Positions 2,081 to 32,147 of a stretch of DNA of 64,000 nucleotides are shown piece by piece. The notes under the pieces are model-generated. The model saw only the letters and a list, made by a program, of their open reading frames with translations, ran no database searches and was not told where the DNA came from. Made by a program: the position numbers and the translations under genes. This stretch comes from Minisyncoccota bacterium. Lineage in GTDB: Bacteria > Patescibacteriota > Minisyncoccia > Phycocordibacterales > Phycocordibacteraceae. The stretch's first letter is position 1. Each line of letters opens with the position of its first letter. The stretch covers positions 217,249-281,248 of the forward strand of contig JAGORR010000001.1 of the NCBI GenBank assembly GCA_018062765.1, written 5' to 3'.

Positions 2081-3907
2081 CTACTCGACCGTCACAGACT
2101 TTGCGAGGTTCCTGGGCTGGTCTATCGGGAGGTCACGAGCGTGCGCCACATGGTAGGCAAAAAGCTGCACAGGTATCGCCGTCAGGATGGGAAGAAACGC
2201 CTCATGCGTCTTCGGTACTGCGATGATATCGTCAGCAAGTTCTCTGAGATCCTCCTCCTTGCCCTCCGTGGTAATCGCAAGCACCTTACCGCCGCGCGCC
2301 TTTATTTCTTGAATGTTTGATTTCGATTTTTCATACAAAGAATCATCGGGCGCAAGCACAACCGAGAGGAAGGACGGCTCGATAAGCGCAATCGGTCCGT
2401 GTTTCATCTCGCCTGAGGCATACCCCTCCGCATGTATGTAGGAAATTTCCTTGAGCTTTATCGCGCCTTCAAGTGCGATAGGGAATTGGTACTTGCGCCC
2501 TAGGTAGAATGCGTTTTCCGCGTCCTTATATTTTTGCGAAAGCTTCCTGATTTCCTCGCTCTTCTTAAGGATAGAACGCGCAAGGTCTGGAAGTTTTGCG
2601 AGTTCCTCGATACGTTCTTGTCCTTCTCCGACCGACATTCCGCGTCCGCGCGCAAATAGTATGGAAATCATCGCGAATACCGCCATCTGCGAAATCATCG
2701 CTTTTGTCGAAGCGACGCTAATCTCCGGCCCCGCGTGGTTGTAGACGCCCGCATCCGTCTCACGTGCGATAGAAGATCCGACGACGTTGACGACGCCGAG
2801 CGTGGTAACACCATTGCGTTTTGCTTCGCGGATTGCCTCTATGGTGTCGAGCGTTTCTCCTGACTGCGAAACCGCGATAAGTATCGTGTCTGCCGGGTTC
2901 ATTGTGTTCTTGCGGTATCGCAACTCCGACCCAAGCTCAACCTCGGTGGGGATTCCCGCGAACTCCTCGAGCATAAGTTCGCCCACGCGCCCGGCGTAGG
3001 ACGCGCTTCCGCAGCCGGTAATGATGACGCGAGACTTCTCCTGAAGTGTGGGCAGGATGTCGATGAGTCCACCGAGTCGTACCGAGCCCTCCGCCATGAG
3101 GAGTCGACCACGAAGCGTGTTCTCAAGGGCCTCAGGTATCTCCATCATTTCTTTCAGCATGAAATGCTCGTACCCCTTCTTTTGGGCCGCCTCGAGGTCC
3201 CACTCTAGGGTCTCGACCGTGGCACTTCGTGATTCACCCGCCAAGGTGCGGATGTCGTAGCCGTTTTCAGTTAGTACGGCGATATCTCCATCGTCGAGGT
3301 ATACAACGTCTCGCGTATGTCGCAAGACAGGCGTCGCGTCAGACGCAATGTAATACTCACCATCTCCTATCCCGAGCATTACAGGGCTTGAAAATCGCGC
3401 GGCAACGAGTTTCCCTGGCTCACGCACGCTTGCCGCTACGAGTCCGTATGTGCCGCGCACGCGACTAAGTGCTTTAGCGACTGCGTCCTCAAGCAACACT
3501 CCCTCGCCATACTCCGCGTAGATAAGATTCGCGAGTACTTCGGTATCGGTGTCCGAGTGAAAAGCGACGCCGGAGGACGCAAGCTCAGCCTTTAGGTCTG
3601 CGTAATTCTCGATAATGCCATTGTGAACGATCGAGACCGTTCCCGAGGCGTCCGTATGAGGATGCGCGTTCTTCTCGACTGGCGGGCCGTGTGTGGCCCA
3701 GCGTGTATGAGCGATTCCGAGAGTACCTGAGAATCCTTCCGGCACCGCCTCACGCAAGGTTGCCACTTTTCCGGCGCGTCGTACTACACCTTTACCTTCG
3801 ACATAAATACCGGCGGAATCATACCCACGGTATTCGAGCGCCGAGAGCCCATCAAGAAGGAAGGGAGTTGCGTTCCGCGAACCTACGTATCCGACGATGC
3901 CACACAT
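2081..3907 (-). CDS. glmS: glutamine--fructose-6-phosphate aminotransferase
   Basis: N-terminal MCGIVGY Ntn-amidotransferase domain and two SIS domains; 608 aa. Confidence 0.95.
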   Translation of the reverse strand: MCGIVGYVGSRNATPFLLDGLSALEYRGYDSAGIYVEGKGVVRRAGKVATLREAVPEGFSGTLGIAHTRWATHGPPVEKNAHPHTDASGTVSIVHNGIIENYADLKAELASSGVAFHSDTDTEVLANLIYAEYGEGVLLEDAVAKALSRVRGTYGLVAASVREPGKLVAARFSSPVMLGIGDGEYYIASDATPVLRHTRDVVYLDDGDIAVLTENGYDIRTLAGESRSATVETLEWDLEAAQKKGYEHFMLKEMMEIPEALENTLRGRLLMAEGSVRLGGLIDILPTLQEKSRVIITGCGSASYAGRVGELMLEEFAGIPTEVELGSELRYRKNTMNPADTILIAVSQSGETLDTIEAIREAKRNGVTTLGVVNVVGSSIARETDAGVYNHAGPEISVASTKAMISQMAVFAMISILFARGRGMSVGEGQERIEELAKLPDLARSILKKSEEIRKLSQKYKDAENAFYLGRKYQFPIALEGAIKLKEISYIHAEGYASGEMKHGPIALIEPSFLSVVLAPDDSLYEKSKSNIQEIKARGGKVLAITTEGKEEDLRELADDIIAVPKTHEAFLPILTAIPVQLFAYHVAHARDLPIDQPRNLAKSVTVE

Positions 3908-17013: not shown

Positions 17014-17385
17014 ATGAAGAAACAAGCAGATGCCGCAAAAAAGCATCGTGTCTACACCATGAGCTTCGCGAGCGTCTACCCGCTTTATGTGAAGAAGGCT
17101 GAAAAGAAGGGGCGCACGAATGCAGAGGTAGACGAAGTTATCGGTTGGCTCACGGGCTACACCAAGAAGGGGCTTGCGGCAGAGCTCAAGAAGGGGACGG
17201 ATATCGAGACGTTCATAAAGAAGGCTCCAAAACTGAACCCTGCTCGAAAACTGATCACGGGTGTCGTTTGCGGCGTGCGCGTAGAGGAGGTCAAGGAAAA
17301 AACGATGCGGGAGATTCGGTACCTGGATAAGCTCGTGGACGAGCTTGCGAAGGGCCGGGCGATGGAAAAAGTTTTGCGGAAGTAA
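17014..17385 (+). CDS. DUF2200-family protein
   Basis: [20 protein letters not shown]...WLTGY signature. Confidence 0.45.
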
Positions 17386-19179
17386 CTACGCATTTTTAAA
17401 CAGGTACACATAGTTGCCGTACCCCTCTTCCTCCATCGACTCCTTAGGAACAAAGCGGAGCGAAGCTGAGTTAGTGCAGAACCGTCTCCCGCCTTCGTCT
17501 ACGGGGCCGTCTTCAAATACGTGTCCGACGTGTCCGGCGTCGCTCCGTATCTCGGTTCGTGTCGTCGAGAGCGAGTTGTCTTCATGCATCGTGACCGAAT
17601 CGTCATCAATGGTGCGCCAGAAGCTCGGCCATCCGGTTCCGGAGTCGTACTTGTGAGTACTTGAAAAGAGCGGCTTGCCCGTCACGATATCGACGTAGAT
17701 TCCTTCTGCCTTATTGTCCCAATACTTGTTATTGAATGGCGACTCGGTGCCGCTCTCTGCAACGACGTGGTAGGCGAGCGGGTCGAGGTGCTTGAGCTTC
17801 TCCACGATTTCCTCGTCGGTATATTCGTACGCGGCGCGCGATTCCGTTGCGGCGGCTTCTTGCTTGGACTCGAGAAACTGTATGGCAGCGTCCTTGGCCC
17901 ATGTCTCCTCAACGAATCCGGCTCTTCCTGATGCCTTCTTGTAGCGTTCGTAGTGGTCAGCTGCTTTCTGATAGTAATCCTGATGGTACGTTTCTGCCTC
18001 AAAGAATGTGGTGAGTGGGATAATTTCGGTGGCGATTGGCGCAGTAAAAAGTCCGCTCTTCTCCAAACGACTTTTTGAATCGAGCGCTGCTTCCTTCTGC
18101 TCGTCGTTTTGATAGAAAATCGCGGTCGTGTACTGGAAGCCCGTGTCAGCAAACTGCCCATCGGTGTCGGTCGGGTCGATGTGTGACCAGTAGATGTCGA
18201 GTATCTCTTCAGTCGTGATGATTTCCGGGTCATAGGTTATCTGCACCGACTCTCGATGCTTGGTCGCTCCCGTCGCAACCGTGATATACGAGGCAGTCAC
18301 TGCATCGCCTCCGGCGTACCCAGAGATCGCACTAACAACACCCGGCTGCTCCTGAAAGTAAGCTTCAGTGCACCAGAAGCATCCTCCGGCAAGGGTAATC
18401 ACTTCATGCACTCCATCTGCGCGCTTCTCATCCTCATTCATGCTGGTGGGAGCGAATCGCTCGATAAGGTTGTTCTCGAGCTGTATCGTCGCGCCGTACC
18501 CAGAATCGAGGATGAATGTCTCTATCTTCTTGTCGAATCCAGTTAGTATCGCGACTCCGACGAGGATAATTAGAACACCGAAGACCTGCTTTATTTTTCC
18601 GGCAGCGTGCATGCGGGAATCAAGTGCGGTAACGATGCGCTGCCCGAAGTACGCGATAGCAAGGAGCGCGAGCGCGAGTCCGAACGTGAAGCCAAGAAGG
18701 TACAGGAGGCCGGTGAGGAAGGTCGCAGGGAGCGCAGTCGCGATGATGAAGAGGTACGTGGGCGAGCAAGTGGTAAACACAGGACCAAGCGCGAGTCCTA
18801 TGAGAGCGTCACCCGCATAACTCTTCTTGCCGTACCCGGCACCTACCGCCTTGTTACTCGCGCGGCTCAACGCGTTCACGAGCGGCACGCGCGCCCAGAG
18901 CGCAGGGAACACAATTGCGATACCTACCAGAATCACGATGCTGCCTGAGAACCAGCTCCAGAATGCGGTTGGGATATCGATAAGAAGCGTCGATGCCTTA
19001 AGTAGCAAGGTGAAGACGATAACCGATACCGAGAGTGAGCCGATGACCACGACGGCGCGCTTCGAGATGTACCGCCCATCGTTCTCCGAGGCACCTATGA
19101 CGACCGGCAAGAAGGGGAGTATGCACGGCGCGAGCACCGTGAATACGCCCGCCAAGATTGATATGCCGAGGAAGATCAT
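17386..19179 (-). CDS. msrAB: CcdA-like thiol-disulfide transmembrane domain fused to MsrA and MsrB
   Basis: N-terminal six-TM CcdA/DsbD domain (APCILPFLP, TTCSPTYL). MsrA domain with GCFWC; MsrB/SelR domain with the GTGWPSF, HxGHVF and RFC motifs. Start chosen at MIFLGISIL, immediately after the upstream gene's stop. Confidence 0.9.
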   Translation of the reverse strand: MIFLGISILAGVFTVLAPCILPFLPVVIGASENDGRYISKRAVVVIGSLSVSVIVFTLLLKASTLLIDIPTAFWSWFSGSIVILVGIAIVFPALWARVPLVNALSRASNKAVGAGYGKKSYAGDALIGLALGPVFTTCSPTYLFIIATALPATFLTGLLYLLGFTFGLALALLAIAYFGQRIVTALDSRMHAAGKIKQVFGVLIILVGVAILTGFDKKIETFILDSGYGATIQLENNLIERFAPTSMNEDEKRADGVHEVITLAGGCFWCTEAYFQEQPGVVSAISGYAGGDAVTASYITVATGATKHRESVQITYDPEIITTEEILDIYWSHIDPTDTDGQFADTGFQYTTAIFYQNDEQKEAALDSKSRLEKSGLFTAPIATEIIPLTTFFEAETYHQDYYQKAADHYERYKKASGRAGFVEETWAKDAAIQFLESKQEAAATESRAAYEYTDEEIVEKLKHLDPLAYHVVAESGTESPFNNKYWDNKAEGIYVDIVTGKPLFSSTHKYDSGTGWPSFWRTIDDDSVTMHEDNSLSTTRTEIRSDAGHVGHVFEDGPVDEGGRRFCTNSASLRFVPKESMEEEGYGNYVYLFKNA

Positions 19180-19180
19180 C

Positions 19181-19678
19181 CTAGATAATTTGGGCGAGTG
19201 CGCCTGCGAGCGTTGGACTGCCGCTCCACTTCTTAATGAGTGTGCCGTCGGCGGCAACCTGCACGAGGGTGTGCTGGTACGTCACGCCATATTTCTTCTT
19301 GAGCTCTGACTCCGTATCGTAGTCAACCTTCAGTATGCTGACCTCTTCCGGTATGGAGTCTCGATTGGCCTCGATATCGGCATTAAGCCCGCGACATGAC
19401 GGGCACCAAGAGGCGTGGAAAAACAGAACGACATCACCGCTCTCCGCGCGAGCAAGTTTTTCAGCCGAGTACGATTCATAGGAGCCTTTCATCATCGACT
19501 CCTTTTCGTCCATCATGCCAGTGTCTTCCTTCATCATCTTGTCTTCTTCCATGCTCGAAGATTCCTGCATCTTCTTATCCATCATTCCGTCCTCAGGCTT
19601 CTGTATGGACGCGTAGGCGACTCCTCCAATCAATACAATGAGTACAAGTCCGATGGCGACTACGATGGTTTTGTTCAT
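19181..19678 (-). CDS. membrane-anchored thioredoxin-like protein with a Met-rich linker
   Basis: TM anchor, a 45-aa segment with 13 Met (MMDKKMQESSSMEEDKMMKEDTGMMDEKESMMK), then a Trx fold with WCPSC. Confidence 0.75.
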   Translation of the reverse strand: MNKTIVVAIGLVLIVLIGGVAYASIQKPEDGMMDKKMQESSSMEEDKMMKEDTGMMDEKESMMKGSYESYSAEKLARAESGDVVLFFHASWCPSCRGLNADIEANRDSIPEEVSILKVDYDTESELKKKYGVTYQHTLVQVAADGTLIKKWSGSPTLAGALAQII

Positions 19679-19783
19679 GGTGAATCAATAAGTACTAATG
19701 CCTTGTATGAAGATAAGTGTAGTAAAGAAAAACGCGCATGTAAAGCATACTTTACATGCGCGTTGTGGATAGAAAGCGCTTCT

Positions 19784-20146
19784 CTACAGGTTTTTATCGG
19801 TCCAGATACGCGTCAGAATCTTTACGATAATCATCGTAATCAGTGTCACTACGAGCCAGGGGTCAACAGAATGCGTGTACCCTTGCACGACTATCGCTAA
19901 CGTTAGTATTCCGGAACCCGCGAGGTATGCATTCCTGCCAGCGAGCGTACGGTGAAGCGCGTCACGCTCATCCGTCATTCGCTCGCGCAGTACGAAACTT
20001 GCGAAAATCCCGAAGAGAGCGAGTGTACAAGCGAGCATCGCGAGCACCATCATGTCCGGCATCCAGAAGTGGAAGGGATTAAGGAGGAGTACGGCGAGCG
20101 CAACCAAGCACAGCGTCACGATAGCTTCTAGAAGATTATTTTTCAT
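19784..20146 (-). CDS. small multi-pass membrane protein, partner of the upstream XRE regulator
   Basis: 120 aa, four predicted TM helices. Overlaps the XRE gene by 11 nt, a typical HTH plus membrane-protein pair. Confidence 0.5.
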   Translation of the reverse strand: MKNNLLEAIVTLCLVALAVLLLNPFHFWMPDMMVLAMLACTLALFGIFASFVLRERMTDERDALHRTLAGRNAYLAGSGILTLAIVVQGYTHSVDPWLVVTLITMIIVKILTRIWTDKNL

Positions 20147-20348
20147 AGGTTACTTTAAACAGCTTTTCGACGGGCAGTTTGAAAAAGCCCGCTATCTTAA
20201 GCGCGAGTAGGATGGATGGCGTGTAGTTGCCCTTCTCAAGAGCGATGATGGTCTGCCGACTCACTCCCGCCTTGGATGCGAGTTCTTCCTGGGTCACGCC
20301 CATCTGATTCCTGTGCTTGCTAACGGTGTTCTCTATCCGCTCCTGCAT
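20136..20348 (-). CDS. XRE-family helix-turn-helix transcriptional regulator
   Basis: LASKAGVSRQTIIALEKG HTH motif; 70 aa. Confidence 0.7.
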   Translation of the reverse strand: MQERIENTVSKHRNQMGVTQEELASKAGVSRQTIIALEKGNYTPSILLALKIAGFFKLPVEKLFKVTYEK

Positions 20349-20620
20349 GGCACCAAGTATAGATGCTCAGTAGGAAGTAGTAAAGTTAACTTTACGTGTA
20401 CGCTAGCGAGACTAGGAGTTTCTCTCACAAAATACTTTCGCCGTCGCAAAGACTAGGATTCTGTCACGGTTTGCGGCTAGATTCGTCCAAGCATTCCGAA
20501 TCTAGCTCGCAACCCCGACCCGGACTCGTCGCTTAACCCTGCCCCGCAGGCGCGACTCCGTCTTTCGAATCCTAGTCTCCCAGACAAGCGAAAGACCGCC
20601 TTTCGGCGGCTTTCGTCTTG

Positions 20621-20691
20621 CTGCGAGACTAGGATTCGAACCTAGATAAACGGATTCAGAGTCCGTTGTCCTACCATTAGACGATCTCGCA
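20621..20691 (-). tRNA. tRNA-Gln (anticodon CUG)
   Basis: Minus-strand sequence TGCGAGA-TC-GTCT-AATGGTA-GGAC-A-ACGGA-CTCTGAA-TCCGT-TTAT-CTAGG-TTCGAAT-CCTAG-TCTCGCA-G. U1-A72 pair is typical of bacterial tRNA-Gln. No encoded CCA. A terminator hairpin lies downstream (20590-20618). Confidence 0.85.
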
Positions 20692-20801
20692 ATGCCTTTG
20701 ATTCTACCAAAGTAGACGACGGCAGAGCCGTCGTGCCCCGAAACGATACGACAAAAGAGGGGAGCGGACAACCCTTGGATACCGGGTGCCTAGGGCAGGA
20801 C

Positions 20802-27091: not shown

Positions 27092-28578
27092 AAGTTCCGA
27101 CGAGCTACAACCCCGATGTTCTTACGTGTCTTGCCAACCTTAGCAACGACGAGGTGTTCACACCGCCAGCGTTGGTGAACCAAATACTCGACACCTTGCC
27201 GTCCGAAATTTGGCGAGACAAAACTGCCACTTTTCTTGATCCAGTCTCTAAGACAGGTGTTTTTCTGCGCGAAATAGTCCGCCGCCTCAATGATGGTCTG
27301 GTCAAAGAAATCCCCGACGCACAAGCACGGCTCGATCATATTTACACCAAGCAGGTGTTCGGCATCGCCATCACCGAGCTCACGGCACTGCTCTCGCGAC
27401 GCTCGCTTTACTGCTCGAAAGACGCAAGCGGCAAGTATTCAGTAAGTGAGGCGTTCAAAAGTGCTGACGGCAATGTACGCTTCGAGCGCACCGAGCATAG
27501 CTGGAAAGACGGTAAATGTGCCTTCTGTGGTGCAGGCCAGGCCGAGTATGATCGCGCCGAGGCGCTTGAGACCCATGCTTACCAGTTTATTCACACCGAC
27601 AACCCTAGTACACTGTTTAATAATATGAAGTTTGATGTAATTGTCGGCAATCCACCATATCAGTTGAGCGATGCTGGCGATAGCACGGGCGCATCGCCGA
27701 TATATCAACTCTTTGTTGAGCAAGCAAAGAAACTTCAACCACGCTTTTTGACAATGATTATTCCGTCGCGTTGGTTTGCAGGAGGGAAAGGGCTTGAGGG
27801 TTTTCGTGAAGATATGTTGAACGACGGACGAATCTCACATTTGGTGGACCATCCAATCGCGTCAGATGTTTTCCCCGGTATCAAATTGAATGGTGGTGCT
27901 TGCTATTTCCTATGGAATCGCGAATATCAGGGAGAATGCGAAGTAACCATAAAGATGAGCGGCATGGAGGATACAACAAAACGGCGACTCAATCAGTTCG
28001 ATACATTTGTTCGTTTCAACAAGGCAATCTCAATTTTGGATAAGGTGCAGTCGAAAAAGTATTCATCGTTGAGTGAGCTGGTATCACGACAAAAGCCGTT
28101 TGGACTCCGTACTTTTGAGCGTCCAACAGGAAAGGGTACTGTAAAGCTATACGCGAACAAAACCATTGGAAAGATTGAAAAGTCTGCAATAACCGTCGGG
28201 TTCGATATGTTGGATTCGTGGAAAGTATTTATTTCGATGGGCTATGGTGAAGGTGGCGAGGCGCGCGAATATCCGCGCATGATTTTGGGTAAACCCATCG
28301 TTGCTGCCCCGGGAATTGCATGTACAGAGACATATATTGTTGTTGGGAAATATAAGACAGAAAAAGAGGCAGAAAATCTTGCTAAATATTTACAAACGAA
28401 GTTCTTGCGATTCTTGGTCGCTCTTCGTAAAAACACGCAACACGTTACTAGAGATCGGTTTTTATTTGTGCCCGATTTGCCAATGAAAGAAGAATGGACA
28501 GACGAAAAGCTTAACAAGCTTTTCCGTCTGACAAAAGAGGAGATCGAATTCATTGACATGATCGTTCGTCCCATATAG
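27088..28578 (+). CDS. N6-adenine DNA methyltransferase, gamma class (Eco57I family)
   Basis: Motif X DEVFTPPALV, motif I region LDPVSKTGVFL (non-canonical), motif IV VIVGNPPYQ; 496 aa; start overlaps the upstream stop (ATGA). Confidence 0.8.
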   Translation: MKVPTSYNPDVLTCLANLSNDEVFTPPALVNQILDTLPSEIWRDKTATFLDPVSKTGVFLREIVRRLNDGLVKEIPDAQARLDHIYTKQVFGIAITELTALLSRRSLYCSKDASGKYSVSEAFKSADGNVRFERTEHSWKDGKCAFCGAGQAEYDRAEALETHAYQFIHTDNPSTLFNNMKFDVIVGNPPYQLSDAGDSTGASPIYQLFVEQAKKLQPRFLTMIIPSRWFAGGKGLEGFREDMLNDGRISHLVDHPIASDVFPGIKLNGGACYFLWNREYQGECEVTIKMSGMEDTTKRRLNQFDTFVRFNKAISILDKVQSKKYSSLSELVSRQKPFGLRTFERPTGKGTVKLYANKTIGKIEKSAITVGFDMLDSWKVFISMGYGEGGEAREYPRMILGKPIVAAPGIACTETYIVVGKYKTEKEAENLAKYLQTKFLRFLVALRKNTQHVTRDRFLFVPDLPMKEEWTDEKLNKLFRLTKEEIEFIDMIVRPI

Positions 28579-28580
28579 CT

Positions 28581-31094
28581 ATGGCCGATTTTTTTCCGCC
28601 ACGGCCGGAGGCAAAGCCTACTATCTACGCCTACAAGCTCAAAGGTGTGGAAACGCATGCTCATCTCCTCAAGGTGGGCTACACGACGCGCGATGCGCAA
28701 AGCCGCATTGCCGAACAGCTCACCACCGCGCGTTTGCAATACGAAATTGTTTTTGAAGAACCGGCTATGCGTGCCGATGGTTCGACATTTACAGATACCG
28801 ACGTGCATCGCCACTTGCGCGGAAAGCGCATCACGAATCCGGAAGGAGAGTGGTTTGAGTGTGGAGTGAAAGACGTGCGAGCAGCGTACGTTGCCATACG
28901 AGAGGGTGTGTTCAACGAAGAAAACCGCACACAAACATTCGGAATGCGCCCAGAGCAAGCCGATGCTGTGGTAAAAACCGCCGCGTATTTTACCGAGGCG
29001 CATGCTGACGGCAAGCAAACACCGCATTTTTTATGGAATGCCAAAATGCGCTTCGGGAAAACATTCACCACGTACCAGCTCGCCAAAAAGATGGGATGGA
29101 GGAGGGTGTTAGTGCTCACCTTTAAGCCCGCCGTGCACAATTCCTGGCACGAGGATTTGATGAACCATGTAGATTTTGAGGGATGGCAGTTTGTCTCGCG
29201 ACGGGGGAATACGCTCAATCATGCTGACATTGATGAAAAGAAACCATTTGTCGTATTTGGTTCGTTCCAGGATTTTCTCGGAAAAAACAGCGCAGGCGGG
29301 ATAAAAGCAAAGAATGAGTGGGTACACGAGACAACATGGGATGCTGTCGTCTTTGATGAATACCACTATGGTGCGTGGCGCGAGAGCGCGAAGGATTTGT
29401 TTGTCGGTGAGGAAAAAGACGTACGCAAGGACGAAGAGGGTGAGGCGTTGGAGTACTTTGACGAGCGCGCAGTGCCGATAAAGACCGGCGCGTATCTCTA
29501 CCTTTCGGGTACCCCATTTCGGGCTATTGCGAGCGGAGAATTTATCGAAGAGCAGATTTTCAACTGGACGTACAGTGACGAACAGCGGGCAAAAGAAGAG
29601 TGGGACAGTGCGAAGGGACCCAACCCATATGCGTCGTTGCCACGGATGGTGATGCTCACCTATCAGTTACCTGATGCTATACGTGAAGTGGCGATGGGTG
29701 GGGAGTTCAATCAGTTTGATTTGAGCCAGTTTTTTGCTGCAGAAGGAAAGGGCAAGAGCGCGAAATTTTTGTATAAAGACGAAGTGCAAAAGTGGCTGGA
29801 TTTGATTCGCGGTGCGTTTGCTGAAACTACCGTAGACAATTTGAAGCTGGGAGCGAAGAAGCCTGCGTTGCCGTTTTCTGACACGCGGCTTTTGAATGTG
29901 CTATCGCACACGTTTTGGTTTTTGCCGAGTGTAGCGGCCTGTCATGCTATGGCGAATTTGCTCAAGCAACGACAGAACAAGTTTTTTAACGAGTACGAGG
30001 TGATTGTGGCAGCGGGTACGGCGGCGGGAATTGGCGTGGCGGCGCTTGAGCCTGTGCTGAGGAAGATGGGCGAGCCCTTGAAGACGCGCACAATTACGCT
30101 TTCGTGCGGCAAACTGACGACGGGTGTATCCGTGAAGCCATGGACAGGTATTTTTATGCTGCGCAATGTAGCGAGCCCCGAGACATATTTTCAGGCGGCT
30201 TTTCGCGTGCAGACACCGTGGACTGTGCCGAATCCGGAGGGCAACGCGCCAAATCGTGAAGAAATCATCAAGCAGGAATGCTATGTTTTCGATTTTGCTC
30301 CGGATCGCGCTTTGCGACAGATTGCCGAGTATAGTTCTAGACTCAATTTGGATGATTCGGTCAGTCCCGAGAAAAAGGTGGAGGAGTTTATTCACTTCTT
30401 GCCGGTCTTGGCCTATGACGGAAGCGCGATGAATCAGATAGACGCGGCGGGAATTTTGGATATGGCGATGAGCGGGACCACTGCCACGTTGCTTGCGCGG
30501 CGTTGGGAGAGTGCGCTTTTGGTGAATGTCGACAACTATACTCTGGCGCGCTTGATGAACAGTGATGAAGCGATGCAGGCATTGATGAGTATTGAAGGCT
30601 TTCGTGCTCTGAATCAAGATATTGAGACTATCATCAACAAGTCCGGTGTGGTGGAGAAACTGAAAAAAGAAGCGAACGATCGGACGTTGACGAAGAAAGA
30701 AACAGAGTCATTGAGCGACGCCGAAAAAGAATTGAAGGGCAAGCGTAAGCAGGTGCAGGAAAAGCTCATCAAATTTGCAACTCGCATTCCGGTGTTTATG
30801 TATCTCACCGACTACCGCGAGCATACTTTGAAGGACGTAATCAATGAGCTTGAGCCGGACTTGTTTAAACGCGTTACCGGTCTTACTAAAAAGGACTTCG
30901 AGCTCTTGGTGAGCTTAGGTGTATTCAACGATTCGTTGATGAACGACGCGGTTTACAAATTCCGTCGATATGAGGATGCGAGTTTGGCGTACACCGGCAT
31001 AAACAGGCACGAAGGGGAGAATGTTGGTCTTTTTAGCACAGTCCTTTCTGTAAAAGAATACGACCAAACATTCATAAATACTCCAGAAGAGTAG
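28581..31094 (+). CDS. GIY-YIG (T5orf172-like) nuclease domain fused to an SF2 (SNF2/ResIII-like) helicase
   Basis: N-terminus TIYAYKLKGVETHAHLLKVGYTTRD...EGEWFE. Helicase motifs: Q-like TFGMRPEQADAV, I NAKMRFGKTFT, II VVFDEYHYG, III LSGTPF, V LTTGVSV, VI QAAFRVQTP. 837 aa. Confidence 0.6.
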   Translation: MADFFPPRPEAKPTIYAYKLKGVETHAHLLKVGYTTRDAQSRIAEQLTTARLQYEIVFEEPAMRADGSTFTDTDVHRHLRGKRITNPEGEWFECGVKDVRAAYVAIREGVFNEENRTQTFGMRPEQADAVVKTAAYFTEAHADGKQTPHFLWNAKMRFGKTFTTYQLAKKMGWRRVLVLTFKPAVHNSWHEDLMNHVDFEGWQFVSRRGNTLNHADIDEKKPFVVFGSFQDFLGKNSAGGIKAKNEWVHETTWDAVVFDEYHYGAWRESAKDLFVGEEKDVRKDEEGEALEYFDERAVPIKTGAYLYLSGTPFRAIASGEFIEEQIFNWTYSDEQRAKEEWDSAKGPNPYASLPRMVMLTYQLPDAIREVAMGGEFNQFDLSQFFAAEGKGKSAKFLYKDEVQKWLDLIRGAFAETTVDNLKLGAKKPALPFSDTRLLNVLSHTFWFLPSVAACHAMANLLKQRQNKFFNEYEVIVAAGTAAGIGVAALEPVLRKMGEPLKTRTITLSCGKLTTGVSVKPWTGIFMLRNVASPETYFQAAFRVQTPWTVPNPEGNAPNREEIIKQECYVFDFAPDRALRQIAEYSSRLNLDDSVSPEKKVEEFIHFLPVLAYDGSAMNQIDAAGILDMAMSGTTATLLARRWESALLVNVDNYTLARLMNSDEAMQALMSIEGFRALNQDIETIINKSGVVEKLKKEANDRTLTKKETESLSDAEKELKGKRKQVQEKLIKFATRIPVFMYLTDYREHTLKDVINELEPDLFKRVTGLTKKDFELLVSLGVFNDSLMNDAVYKFRRYEDASLAYTGINRHEGENVGLFSTVLSVKEYDQTFINTPEE

Positions 31095-31103
31095 TAAAAA
31101 TCT

Positions 31104-31991
31104 ATGGCACTTTTTCAATCAAAAAACGATAAGGTTACACAGGTCGGTATAGACCTGTCGCAATTTAGAAACGAGGCTGCCCTACGAGATTTTTTTGCTG
31201 GAAATCTTGAGGAACTTTTAGGACTTCGATTTCTTGCGAATGAATACAGAACCACAGATGGGCGTATAGACACCTTGGCAATTGATGAGGTGGGTACTCC
31301 GGTAATAATTGAGTACAAATGGGATGAGAACGATGCTATTCTCCCGCAAGGCTTGTCCTACATGGCTTGGCTAAAAGACAATAAACGTTTATACGATTTG
31401 CTCGTATCAGATAGACTAGGGAAAGATATCAAAGTGTTTTGGGACATTCCGCGTCTCATTCTTGTAGCACAGCGCTTTGATCGTCGCACGCTCGCTGCCG
31501 CCGGAGAAGCGAAAAATAGTGTTGAACTCATTAAATATACACCTTACGACTCGGGCATATTACATCTTGAAACAGTTTACGGTTCTGAAAAAGTAAGAAC
31601 AGTTTCAGAAACAGTAGCTAAATTGTCATCAAAAGGTGTCAAATATTCTCTCGACCATCATTTAAATAGGGTAAACGAGGATGTTAAGCAGATGTTCTAC
31701 GCTCTTCAAGCAGAAATTCTTAAATGGACAAACGTAGACGAGAGGATCGATCAAAAAGTAGGGATAACGTATCGTACGACCAAGAGTTTCGTCCGTTTCG
31801 AGTTCGGTAAGAGCTATGTGAATGTTTTGGTACGAGACCCACGCTACGATCACAAAATTGACCCGAAAGGTCTATTGAAGGATGTGTCCTCGTTCGGCTG
31901 GGGTTATAAGGGGGTTGCTAAATTGAAATCGAAAGAGGATGTACAGGATGTTCTTGAGTTAGTGCGGGCATCGTACGAATCTACCCTATAA
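31104..31991 (+). CDS. PD-(D/E)xK (NucS/DUF91-like) nuclease domain plus a DUF5655-like C-terminal domain protein
   Basis: GRIDTLAIDEVGTPVIIEYKWDE fits a D...(E/D)xK core. C-terminal region resembles DUF5655. 295 aa. Confidence 0.45.
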   Translation: MALFQSKNDKVTQVGIDLSQFRNEAALRDFFAGNLEELLGLRFLANEYRTTDGRIDTLAIDEVGTPVIIEYKWDENDAILPQGLSYMAWLKDNKRLYDLLVSDRLGKDIKVFWDIPRLILVAQRFDRRTLAAAGEAKNSVELIKYTPYDSGILHLETVYGSEKVRTVSETVAKLSSKGVKYSLDHHLNRVNEDVKQMFYALQAEILKWTNVDERIDQKVGITYRTTKSFVRFEFGKSYVNVLVRDPRYDHKIDPKGLLKDVSSFGWGYKGVAKLKSKEDVQDVLELVRASYESTL

Positions 31992-32147
31992 CGAGAGGCA
32001 ATTTATATTGCATGTTGCTAAACCTAGTTCTAAGCAGGTGCTAGTTTCAATCAATAGATAAGCGATATTTTTGGCTATTTACATGACAAATGGCTGTGAG
32101 ACAATTATTGGGAATCGGCGTAAGAAACCGCTCCTCACATCGTCTTC

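Follow-up and report, generated by a model that had tools for sequence, protein, structure and literature searches.

Patescibacteria (the Candidate Phyla Radiation, CPR) are abundant, uncultivated bacteria with reduced genomes, and their oxygen tolerance is poorly understood. In a stretch of 64,000 nucleotides from one of them, a Paceibacterota bacterium (contig JAGORR010000001.1, positions 217,249 to 281,248; hereafter the window), we analyzed a pair of adjacent genes. The first encodes a thioredoxin-family protein (Trx) that is predicted to be exported and has a methionine-rich tether, and the second encodes a single polypeptide in which a CcdA-type domain is joined to the methionine sulfoxide reductases MsrA and MsrB. 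The two open reading frames (ORFs) and their parts, in window coordinates and all on the minus strand, are the following:

19181..19678 (-): trx, ORF of 165 aa, predicted exported thioredoxin-family protein with an export segment, a Met-rich tether and a Trx fold with WCPSC
19610..19678 (-): N-terminal hydrophobic segment of Trx, residues 1-23, MNKTIVVAIGLVLIVLIGGVAYA, Kyte-Doolittle 2.81 over residues 5-23
19490..19585 (-): core of the Met-rich tether, residues 32-63, with 10 Met in 32 aa and the remainder largely K/D/E/S
19394..19408 (-): WCPSC active site of Trx, residues 91-95 (W91, C92, P93 and C95 invariant in 110 orthologues)
17386..19179 (-): ccdA-msrA-msrB fusion gene, from its ATG, ORF of 597 aa
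18538..19179 (-): CcdA-type six-helix transmembrane (TM) electron-transfer domain, residues 1-214, assigned from hydropathy, Cys positions and a family profile
17947..18405 (-): MsrA domain, residues 259-411, with GCFWC (TIGR00401, PF01625)
17419..17802 (-): MsrB domain, residues 460-587, with catalytic Cys568 in RFCTNS (TIGR00357, PF01641 family)

In the window sequence a single nucleotide separates the TAG stop of trx from the ATG of the fusion gene. Among related loci the gap was <=5 nt in 38 of 40. No Shine-Dalgarno-like sequence was visible at the trx/fusion junction, which makes coupling by termination and reinitiation plausible, and the two genes probably form a translationally coupled operon. 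ORFs, hydropathy and profiles also confirmed the description, given in an initial annotation of this DNA, of a 597-aa polypeptide with six TM helices, MsrA and MsrB, with the trx gene directly upstream. In database searches the fusion protein was 100% identical over 597 aa to one entry (P0001), and Trx was 100% identical to another (P0121), both entries being from a Candidatus Pacebacteria metagenome-assembled genome (MAG). The NCBI records name the fusion only "MsrA" and Trx only "thioredoxin family protein".

The N-terminal domain of the fusion protein carries a pair of cysteines, Cys19 (APCILP) in TM1 and Cys138 (TTCSPT) in TM4, both of which were invariant in 51 orthologues. A profile built from 11 family members matched the solved CcdA of Thermus (5vkv) with E=8.2e-9 over positions 4-224, and in this profile alignment the segments with Cys19 and Cys138 fell on the Cys-bearing helices of 5vkv. 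Most orthologues also had precomputed matches to PF02683 or PF13386. By analogy with CcdA proteins, we infer that this domain would pass electrons from a cytoplasmic Trx to an extracytoplasmic protein of the Trx fold. The loops between the helices were strongly asymmetric in charge. Lysine plus arginine numbered 3, 5 and 3 (sum 11) in loops 1-2, 3-4 and 5-6, against 1 and 0 in loops 2-3 and 4-5, and the family means were 10.4 in odd loops and 1.0 in even loops. A single residue stands before TM1, and the stretch after TM6 is net acidic. Under the positive-inside rule this charge distribution predicts an N-out/C-out topology, and therefore MsrA and MsrB outside the cell. A cytoplasmic placement of MsrAB, which would have contradicted the envelope pathway proposed in the initial annotation, is thus not what the topology check predicts.

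Both reductase domains scored above the curated cutoffs. The MsrA domain reached 171.3 bits against TIGR00401 (cutoff 108.1) and matched PF01625 with E=2.5e-56. Its GCFWC motif lies at residues 266-270 of the fusion and is invariant in orthologues; from what is known of CxxC-type MsrA proteins, we take Cys267 to be the catalytic residue and Cys270 the likely recycling Cys. The MsrB domain scored 169 bits against TIGR00357 (cutoff 113.05) and has both the GTGWPSF and RFC motifs, with RFCTNS, including Cys568, aligning to RYCINS of solved MsrBs. When aligned with Bacillus subtilis MsrB, ...QCGWPSF of that protein was paired with ...GTGWPSF of the query, placing Thr515 at the position of the recycling Cys, and Thr515 was invariant in 51 orthologues. 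The domain has neither the recycling Cys in CGWPSF expected of a 2-Cys MsrB nor any Zn-binding CxxC pair, and it is a 1-Cys MsrB. As an MsrB of this kind has no recycling Cys, its sulfenate must be attacked directly by Trx, and a dedicated Trx close by would therefore be especially useful, as follows from the known chemistry of 1-Cys MsrB enzymes.

The upstream protein matched PF00085 with 44.3 bits (cutoff 23.5) and did not reach the equivalog model of cytoplasmic TrxA, TIGR01068 (38.8 vs 96.8). AlphaFold2 (AF2), run on a 110-sequence alignment, gave a beta-alpha-beta Trx fold with predicted local distance difference test (pLDDT) values of about 88-93. The N-terminus is short and basic (MNK) and an acidic tract follows the hydrophobic segment, a distribution from which we conclude that the segment probably exports the rest of the protein. 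The segment ends in AYA|S, a possible signal-peptidase site, and a [VA]Y[AS] ending was present in 67/110 family members. It may therefore anchor the protein in the membrane or be removed as a signal peptide, and the Trx domain would be exported in both cases. Of the "anchored thioredoxin" originally described, the exported Trx domain stands, and the anchoring is uncertain because AYA|S could be cleaved.

A search with the fusion protein returned 2,336 database matches at E<=1e-20. The best 120 of the 2,336 were all ~600 aa, full-length and 72-81% identical to the query; matches beyond the best 120 may include MsrAB-only proteins. From a species-level genome collection we retrieved 41 full-length loci through the fusion protein alone, and all 41 came from Patescibacteria-type MAGs, regardless of the label given by the submitter. 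In 40/41 of these loci a CxxC thioredoxin gene directly preceded the fusion gene, mostly with a gap of 1 nt. The sole exception (L039 3770-7401, Paceibacterota) has a single-TM-anchored msrAB with a Met-rich-linker trx and a ccdA-redoxin gene adjoining; the ccdA-redoxin protein of that locus also has a C-terminal domain and is DipZ-like. Matches from other phyla spanned the MsrAB part only, and the ORFs that were inspected were ordinary signal-peptide MsrAB proteins. Apparent full-query matches in Vibrio, Marinobacter and other non-CPR bacteria turned out to be proteins of this kind. One Vibrio tblastn match (L076) also takes in the CcdA part of the query, and a separate ccdA gene probably adjoins msrAB there. 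The integrated architecture is confined to Patescibacteria, among which it is common.

Clustering at 50% revealed only a few further full-length triple fusions, P0242 (50% identity) and P0245 (41% identity), which share the five-Cys pattern with the fusion protein. Other relatives contain additional modules. P0290 is a single 806-aa chain with the order DsbD_TM-Redoxin-PMSR-SelR, i.e., CcdA-Redoxin-MsrA-MsrB, and P0248 is (partial CcdA)-Trx-MsrA-MsrB. P0292 and P0362 have the DipZ architecture, CcdA-Redoxin-Thioredoxin_10, and P0317 is Redoxin-MsrAB. In these fused relatives the soluble domains are all C-terminal to CcdA and follow one another as the proposed relay would have it, and the single-chain CcdA-Trx/Redoxin-MsrA-MsrB proteins support the order CcdA to Trx to MsrAB. 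Among distant relatives we also noted fusions of DM13 (an electron-transfer domain) to MsrA-MsrB and of CcdA to DUF3179 (P0277, P0261), a sign that this CcdA subfamily may have still other redox partners outside the cytoplasm.

The route from the cytoplasm through CcdA and Trx to MsrAB has experimental precedents. In Streptococcus pneumoniae the path CcdA to Etrx to MsrAB2 is experimentally established: the Etrx proteins regenerate the Msr domains, and double mutants of ccdA or etrx accumulate oxidised MsrAB2 (PMC3914529). Mutants of trx, ccdA and msrAB in Fusobacterium nucleatum provide genetic support for a CcdA-Trx-MsrAB route (PMC9239216). Three observations weigh on the other side. The fusion protein alone scored 22.2 bits against the Pfam model DsbD_TM (PF02683), under the gathering cutoff of 27.1. 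The AF2 model of the 597-aa fusion had a mean pLDDT of 57.9, with the MsrB part <50, and was too poor to judge domain packing, the cause being a shallow alignment (73-81% identity). Lastly, nothing convincing as a cytoplasmic Trx (WCGPC) or thioredoxin reductase (TrxR; CAxC) was found among the window ORFs. The CcdA assignment therefore stands through the family profile match to 5vkv and the PF02683 matches of orthologues, and at the level of the single sequence it is weaker than the initial annotation had implied. Likewise, the pathway should not be called "self-contained", as it had been, since it would still need a cytoplasmic Trx/TrxR, which the window did not contain. The linkage of ccdA, trx and msrAB in 40/41 loci is direct observation, and the extracytoplasmic placement is a prediction. 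Topology, CcdA homology, this linkage, the fused relatives and the published precedents all agree with the envelope route first suggested, and we consider a CcdA to Trx to MsrAB relay highly likely.

The tether between the hydrophobic segment and the Trx fold forms the core of a low-complexity linker that extends over Trx residues 24-66. The figure of 13 Met in 45 residues given earlier for this linker was too high: Trx has 11 Met in total, including the start, and no 45-residue window contains >10. The enrichment is nevertheless pronounced. Met makes up 2.2% of the long ORFs of the window, the probability of >=10 Met in 32 residues is ~1e-9 per position, and all other ORFs of the 64 kb have at most 5 Met per 32 residues. 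To describe the tether across the family we used 117 usable linkers among the 120 best Trx homologues. All 117 were Met-enriched (length 28-87 aa, 3-18 Met, median 9, median fraction 0.20), the enrichment being kept despite this variation in length and the turnover of sequence, and the linkers end in a conserved ...MMK-x-GSYEAY junction. Their pooled composition was M 19.5%, K 16.4%, D 14.0% and E 12.7%, with K/D/E/R together at 43.6%; L, F, W, H and C were nearly missing (2 His and 0 Cys in 117). As the search for Trx homologues may be biased by shared Met-rich words, we repeated the analysis on the loci retrieved through the fusion protein, and ~31/40 of these had >=5 Met per 40 residues, with up to 22 Met ahead of the CxxC. 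The Met-rich segment is thus present in most orthologues, and the concern raised with the original proposal, that it might be a private insertion of this lineage, does not hold.

The spacing of Met within the linkers was compared with that in shuffled linkers and was far from random (observed/expected):

i+1: 1.8x
i+2: 0.03x
i+3: 0.04x
i+4: 0.19x
i+5: 0.93x (not enriched)
i+6 to i+8: 1.3-1.7x

The linkers therefore consist of MM doublets ~7 residues apart with about five polar or charged residues between them, and the patterns MxM, MxxM and MxxxM were observed 5, 8 and 36 times vs ~190 expected. In the AF2 model from the 110-sequence alignment, residues 22-65 had pLDDT <50 and no secondary structure. 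The model and the composition together portray the tether as an exposed, disordered and solubilised array of Met pairs. Tandem Repeats Finder detected an 18/36-bp tandem DNA repeat in one long orthologous linker (L007), from which we conclude that the tract grows by unit duplication; no DNA repeat was found in the window's own linker with the same program.

Of the two functions that had been suggested for the tether, we favor that of an oxidant sink or Msr substrate. Exposed, disordered Met arrays are the type of substrate that Msr enzymes prefer, and chemical oxidation of Met gives both epimers, so that both MsrA and MsrB are needed for its reversal. There are points that count against a role of this kind. 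Six or seven loci are Met-poor (L009, L019, L020, L021, L024, L029 and L034), with an acidic linker of equal length that has only 1-3 Met per 40 residues. In a neighbor-joining tree of the fusion proteins, five of them (L019, L020, L021, L024 and L029) grouped in one clade, and L009 fell within the Met-rich loci (L034, a partial sequence, was left out of the tree). The Met-poor orthologues indicate that the Met array is accessory and dispensable for the core relay. In addition, four linkers or peptides, among them a Met-rich peptide of locus L035 described below, had no relevant NCBIfam match at E<=10, nor did they match a Pfam family. On balance, we put the chance that the tether is an oxidant sink built into Trx and open to recycling, or an Msr substrate in cis, at about even.

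The alternative that best survives is that the tether is simply a flexible, charged spacer with which the Trx domain reaches CcdA, MsrA/MsrB and wall substrates, its Met being a by-product of slippage in purine-rich low-complexity DNA and having no redox role. The predicted disorder, the very variable length, the tandem DNA repeat of the one long linker and the orthologues that have Met-poor, V/T/E/K-rich linkers of like length are all as expected of such a spacer. What makes us regard it as rather doubtful is the Met itself, which is ~9-fold over background and is maintained in >100 diverged linkers with the non-random spacing described above. That L, F and W, which are hydrophobic as well, are almost missing shows the enrichment to be Met-specific, no other window ORF has such a tract, and the one that does is exactly the partner of a Met-sulfoxide reductase.

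It is unlikely that the tether is primarily a docking element, either as an oxidised pseudo-substrate that holds Trx at the Msr sites or as a chaperone-like binder of client proteins in the manner of the SRP54 M-domain. The tether is covalently joined to the reductant of the Msr domains, proximity would help a 1-Cys MsrB whose sulfenate needs direct attack by Trx, and the MM doublets recur with a heptad-like period. However, AF2 shows no helix or amphipathic structure, and a charge content of 44% argues against binding in a hydrophobic groove. The docking model also overlaps mechanistically with the oxidant sink, which makes the two hard to separate by sequence.

Binding of Cu(I) or Ag(I) by the tether, whether to shield the thiol relay from copper or to sense it, was the other function first suggested, and we consider it very unlikely. 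Met-rich tracts are classical ligand sets for Cu(I), as in CueO, CusF, CopC and Ctr1, and copper stress has been tied to oxidation and repair of periplasmic Met in Escherichia coli (PMC9302797). In the linkers, however, the MxM, MxxM and MxxxM patterns are almost excluded, His and Cys are close to absent, and Met is flanked by K/D/E. The conserved neighborhood of the operon contains no copper-handling gene. The last alternative, a role of the CcdA-Trx pair in the maturation of cytochrome c or in disulfide reduction at large (ResA/CcmG-like) with only an incidental linkage to MsrAB, draws on the fact that cytochrome c biogenesis is the best-known setting of CcdA and membrane-anchored Trx (PMC3842002), but it is extremely improbable given the fusion of CcdA to MsrAB in 41 full-length loci and in the best 120 database matches, the coupling of trx to the fusion gene in 40/41 loci, the existence of four-module fusions and the lack of cytochrome c biogenesis genes in the conserved neighborhood.

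Upstream of trx there is a second pair of genes, which encode a helix-turn-helix (HTH) protein and a small membrane protein, together with two copies of a palindrome:

20136..20348 (-): XRE-family HTH protein, 70 aa, candidate regulator of both operons (PF01381 E=4.7e-14)
19784..20146 (-): four-helix membrane protein, 120 aa, DUF2178-like, candidate sensor partner, overlapping the HTH gene by 11 nt
19731..19764 (-): 15-bp hairpin with T-run, between the DUF2178-like gene and trx
19739-19756: palindrome TGTAAAG-N4-CTTTACA, core of the hairpin, overlapping the -35 (TTTACA) of a trx promoter-like site at 19716-19744
20379..20396 (no strand): second copy of the palindrome, CGTAAAGTTAACTTTACT, overlapping the -35 of an HTH promoter-like site at 20356-20384

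The HTH gene was conserved upstream in 24 loci (61-86% identity) and a DUF2178-like gene was directly upstream of trx in 26; PF09946 (DUF2178) matches were present in many homologues of the 120-aa membrane protein. The DUF2178-like proteins have an invariant LLLNPFxFWMPDM motif (M29 100%, M32 95%) and conserved His65 and His92, and conserved Cys residues were not seen in them. That any of these Met or His residues serves in sensing is speculation. From its position and T-run, the hairpin is likely the terminator of the upstream HTH/DUF2178 operon. The palindrome within it was found 40-73 nt upstream of trx in 29/35 loci, with a conserved core and covarying outer stem flanks, and an equivalent palindrome was upstream of the HTH gene in 19/23 loci, there outside any hairpin. 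The 64-kb window has 2 such sites vs 0.10 expected. This pattern suggests that GTAAAG-N4-CTTTAC is a putative operator common to both operons, and that the operon pair is under dedicated regulation. Where enough upstream sequence was available for the palindrome to be scored, the loci with neither the palindrome nor HTH/DUF2178 genes (tblastn) were exactly the Met-poor L009, L019, L021, L024, L029 and L034. This association is suggestive at best, since it reflects only about two independent events.

Several other features were noted in this region. In locus L035 an extra 59-aa ORF with 27 Met (MMDKKMMAKEMMEMSKSMMEMGMAMDKD...) is located between the DUF2178 gene and trx (3154-3333). Neither a signal peptide nor a TM segment is present in it, and two copies of the palindrome/terminator flank it; it may be a stand-alone peptide or a remnant of a duplication. 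We considered whether the Met codons of the tether might act as a translational attenuator and set the idea aside, because stalling would cut expression just when repair is needed; a separate Met-rich small ORF was present in L035 only. The only Rfam match between 15 and 22 kb was a tRNA-Gln (CTG) at 20620-20691 (-), just upstream of the HTH gene; riboswitches and leaders were not found there. An overlapping 89-aa ORF at 20502-20771 is therefore spurious. On the other side of the operon, the following gene is convergent with the fusion gene, and the stop codons of the two (17383-17385 and, for the fusion gene, 17386-17388) abut without a spacer:

17014-17385 (+): DUF2200 gene

It was near the fusion gene in only 4 related loci and probably does not belong to the system. 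Further away, the region 28001-32000 has a G+C content of 0.46-0.48 vs ~0.55 and a high GC skew (~0.15); it covers an 837-aa ORF (28581-31094) and a 295-aa ORF (31104-31991).

We propose that the operon encodes a machine for the reduction of methionine sulfoxide on the outside of the cell membrane. A cytoplasmic thioredoxin would supply electrons, which would cross the membrane via the Cys19/Cys138 pair of the CcdA domain and reduce the WCPSC disulfide of the exported Trx. The exported Trx would then regenerate both MsrA (the Cys267-Cys270 disulfide) and the 1-Cys MsrB (the Cys568 sulfenate). The fusion of CcdA to MsrAB would bring the electron donor of Trx and its acceptors to one site, and the stop-1nt-start junction would favor 1:1 synthesis of the two proteins. 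The disordered, charged tether of ~45 residues would provide a built-in sacrificial methionine sink, whose Met would react with oxidants such as HOCl, chloramines or H2O2, after which the neighboring MsrA and MsrB would reduce it again, so that the assembly may be both a catalytic scavenger of extracellular oxidants and a repair enzyme for surface proteins. Control of the operon is probably exerted by the nearby XRE-HTH/DUF2178 pair, which would act on the GTAAAG-N4-CTTTAC palindromes that overlap the -35 boxes. Taken as one statement, this combination of relay, tether sink and regulation is in our judgment somewhat favored.

A bolder form of the proposal is possible, and we put it forward only tentatively. 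The whole could be an enzyme system that uses NADPH to reduce extracellular oxidants catalytically (a "methionine peroxidase/hypochlorite reductase"), that is switched on by XRE/DUF2178 as a membrane-sensor pair working through the GTAAAG-N4-CTTTAC operators, and that is a thiol-based, independent invention of the MrpX-MsrP principle. An MM-repeat substrate, its reductases and their reductant would in that case be assembled at one membrane site, in hosts that are ultra-small bacteria without quinones and most of the classical antioxidant enzymes.

The operon is widespread in Patescibacteria (2,336 matches, with the best 120 confirmed as full-length), and it offers a clue to how cytoplasmic thiols may power the repair of surface proteins when a respiratory chain is lacking. 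The CcdA-MsrAB fusion and its four-module relatives back the order of the relay from genomes, independently of experiment. If the tether is indeed a recycled oxidant sink, then sacrificial-methionine scavenging would have evolved twice, in one version with the molybdenum enzyme MsrP and free MrpX, and in the other with thiol-based MsrAB and a tethered sink. The latter would be a simple recombinant system in which to study Met-based antioxidant cycling. The XRE/DUF2178 pair and its operator motif would give DUF2178 a first functional context.

The system that most resembles the operon is CcdA1-Etrx1-MsrAB2 of S. pneumoniae, to which loci of S. gordonii, F. nucleatum and Haemophilus influenzae can be added. 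Like the operon, these combine CcdA, an exported protein of the Trx fold and a fused MsrA-MsrB in one gene cluster with the same inferred electron route, at a cell surface that lacks respiratory quinones (PMC3914529, PMC9239216, PMC13488963). The operon differs from the S. pneumoniae system in that CcdA and MsrAB are one polypeptide, and in its Trx, which is of the PF00085 type with WCPSC and an N-terminal hydrophobic segment and is no lipoprotein. It also has a 1-Cys MsrB and a Met-rich tether on Trx, and its candidate regulator is an XRE/DUF2178 pair, as opposed to a two-component system.

The tether itself is most reminiscent of MrpX/BcrX, which accompany MsrP(YedY)-MsrQ in Azospira, Brucella and uropathogenic E. 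coli; MrpX scavenges hypochlorite in the periplasm and is recycled by MsrP. In both cases an exported segment of Met and charged residues is found beside a Met-sulfoxide reductase, and sacrificial oxidation with enzymatic recycling has been proposed for MrpX (PMC4436054, PMC8315932) as it is here for the tether. MrpX is described as having "20% methionines, 44% charged residues" (PMC4436054), and the 117 linkers, with 19.5% Met and 43.6% charged residues, are very close to these values of ~20% and ~44%. The tether has a period of MM plus about five residues, whereas MrpX has an MXKDX pentapeptide, and it is covalently attached to Trx, whereas MrpX is a free peptide. The partners differ as well, being a thiol-based MsrAB fed by CcdA in the one case and the molybdoenzyme MsrP fed by quinol/MsrQ in the other, and so do the hosts (Patescibacteria vs Proteobacteria). 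We rejected homology of the tether to MrpX, as there was no profile match and the period is different. The resemblance is compositional only, and its sequence features point to convergent composition in an analogous genomic context.

Fusion of consecutive members of an envelope thiol relay is also known from Neisseria PilB (Trx-MsrA-MsrB reduced by DsbD) and from fusions of the DsbD/ScsB/DipZ type. The fusion described here differs from these by skipping the middle carrier, so that CcdA is joined to MsrAB and Trx is separate. The table of MsrAB fusion architectures in a 2026 review lists Trx-MsrAB and TM-MsrAB but no CcdA-MsrAB (PMC13488963), and a literature search on Patescibacteria/CPR with Msr yielded nothing relevant. 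The CcdA-MsrAB fusion, the MrpX-like Met array on a Trx and the XRE/DUF2178 operator system thus appear to be undescribed in the searchable literature. Overall, the core of the operon is not a new type of system; it is the known CcdA-Etrx-MsrAB pathway in a more integrated architecture.

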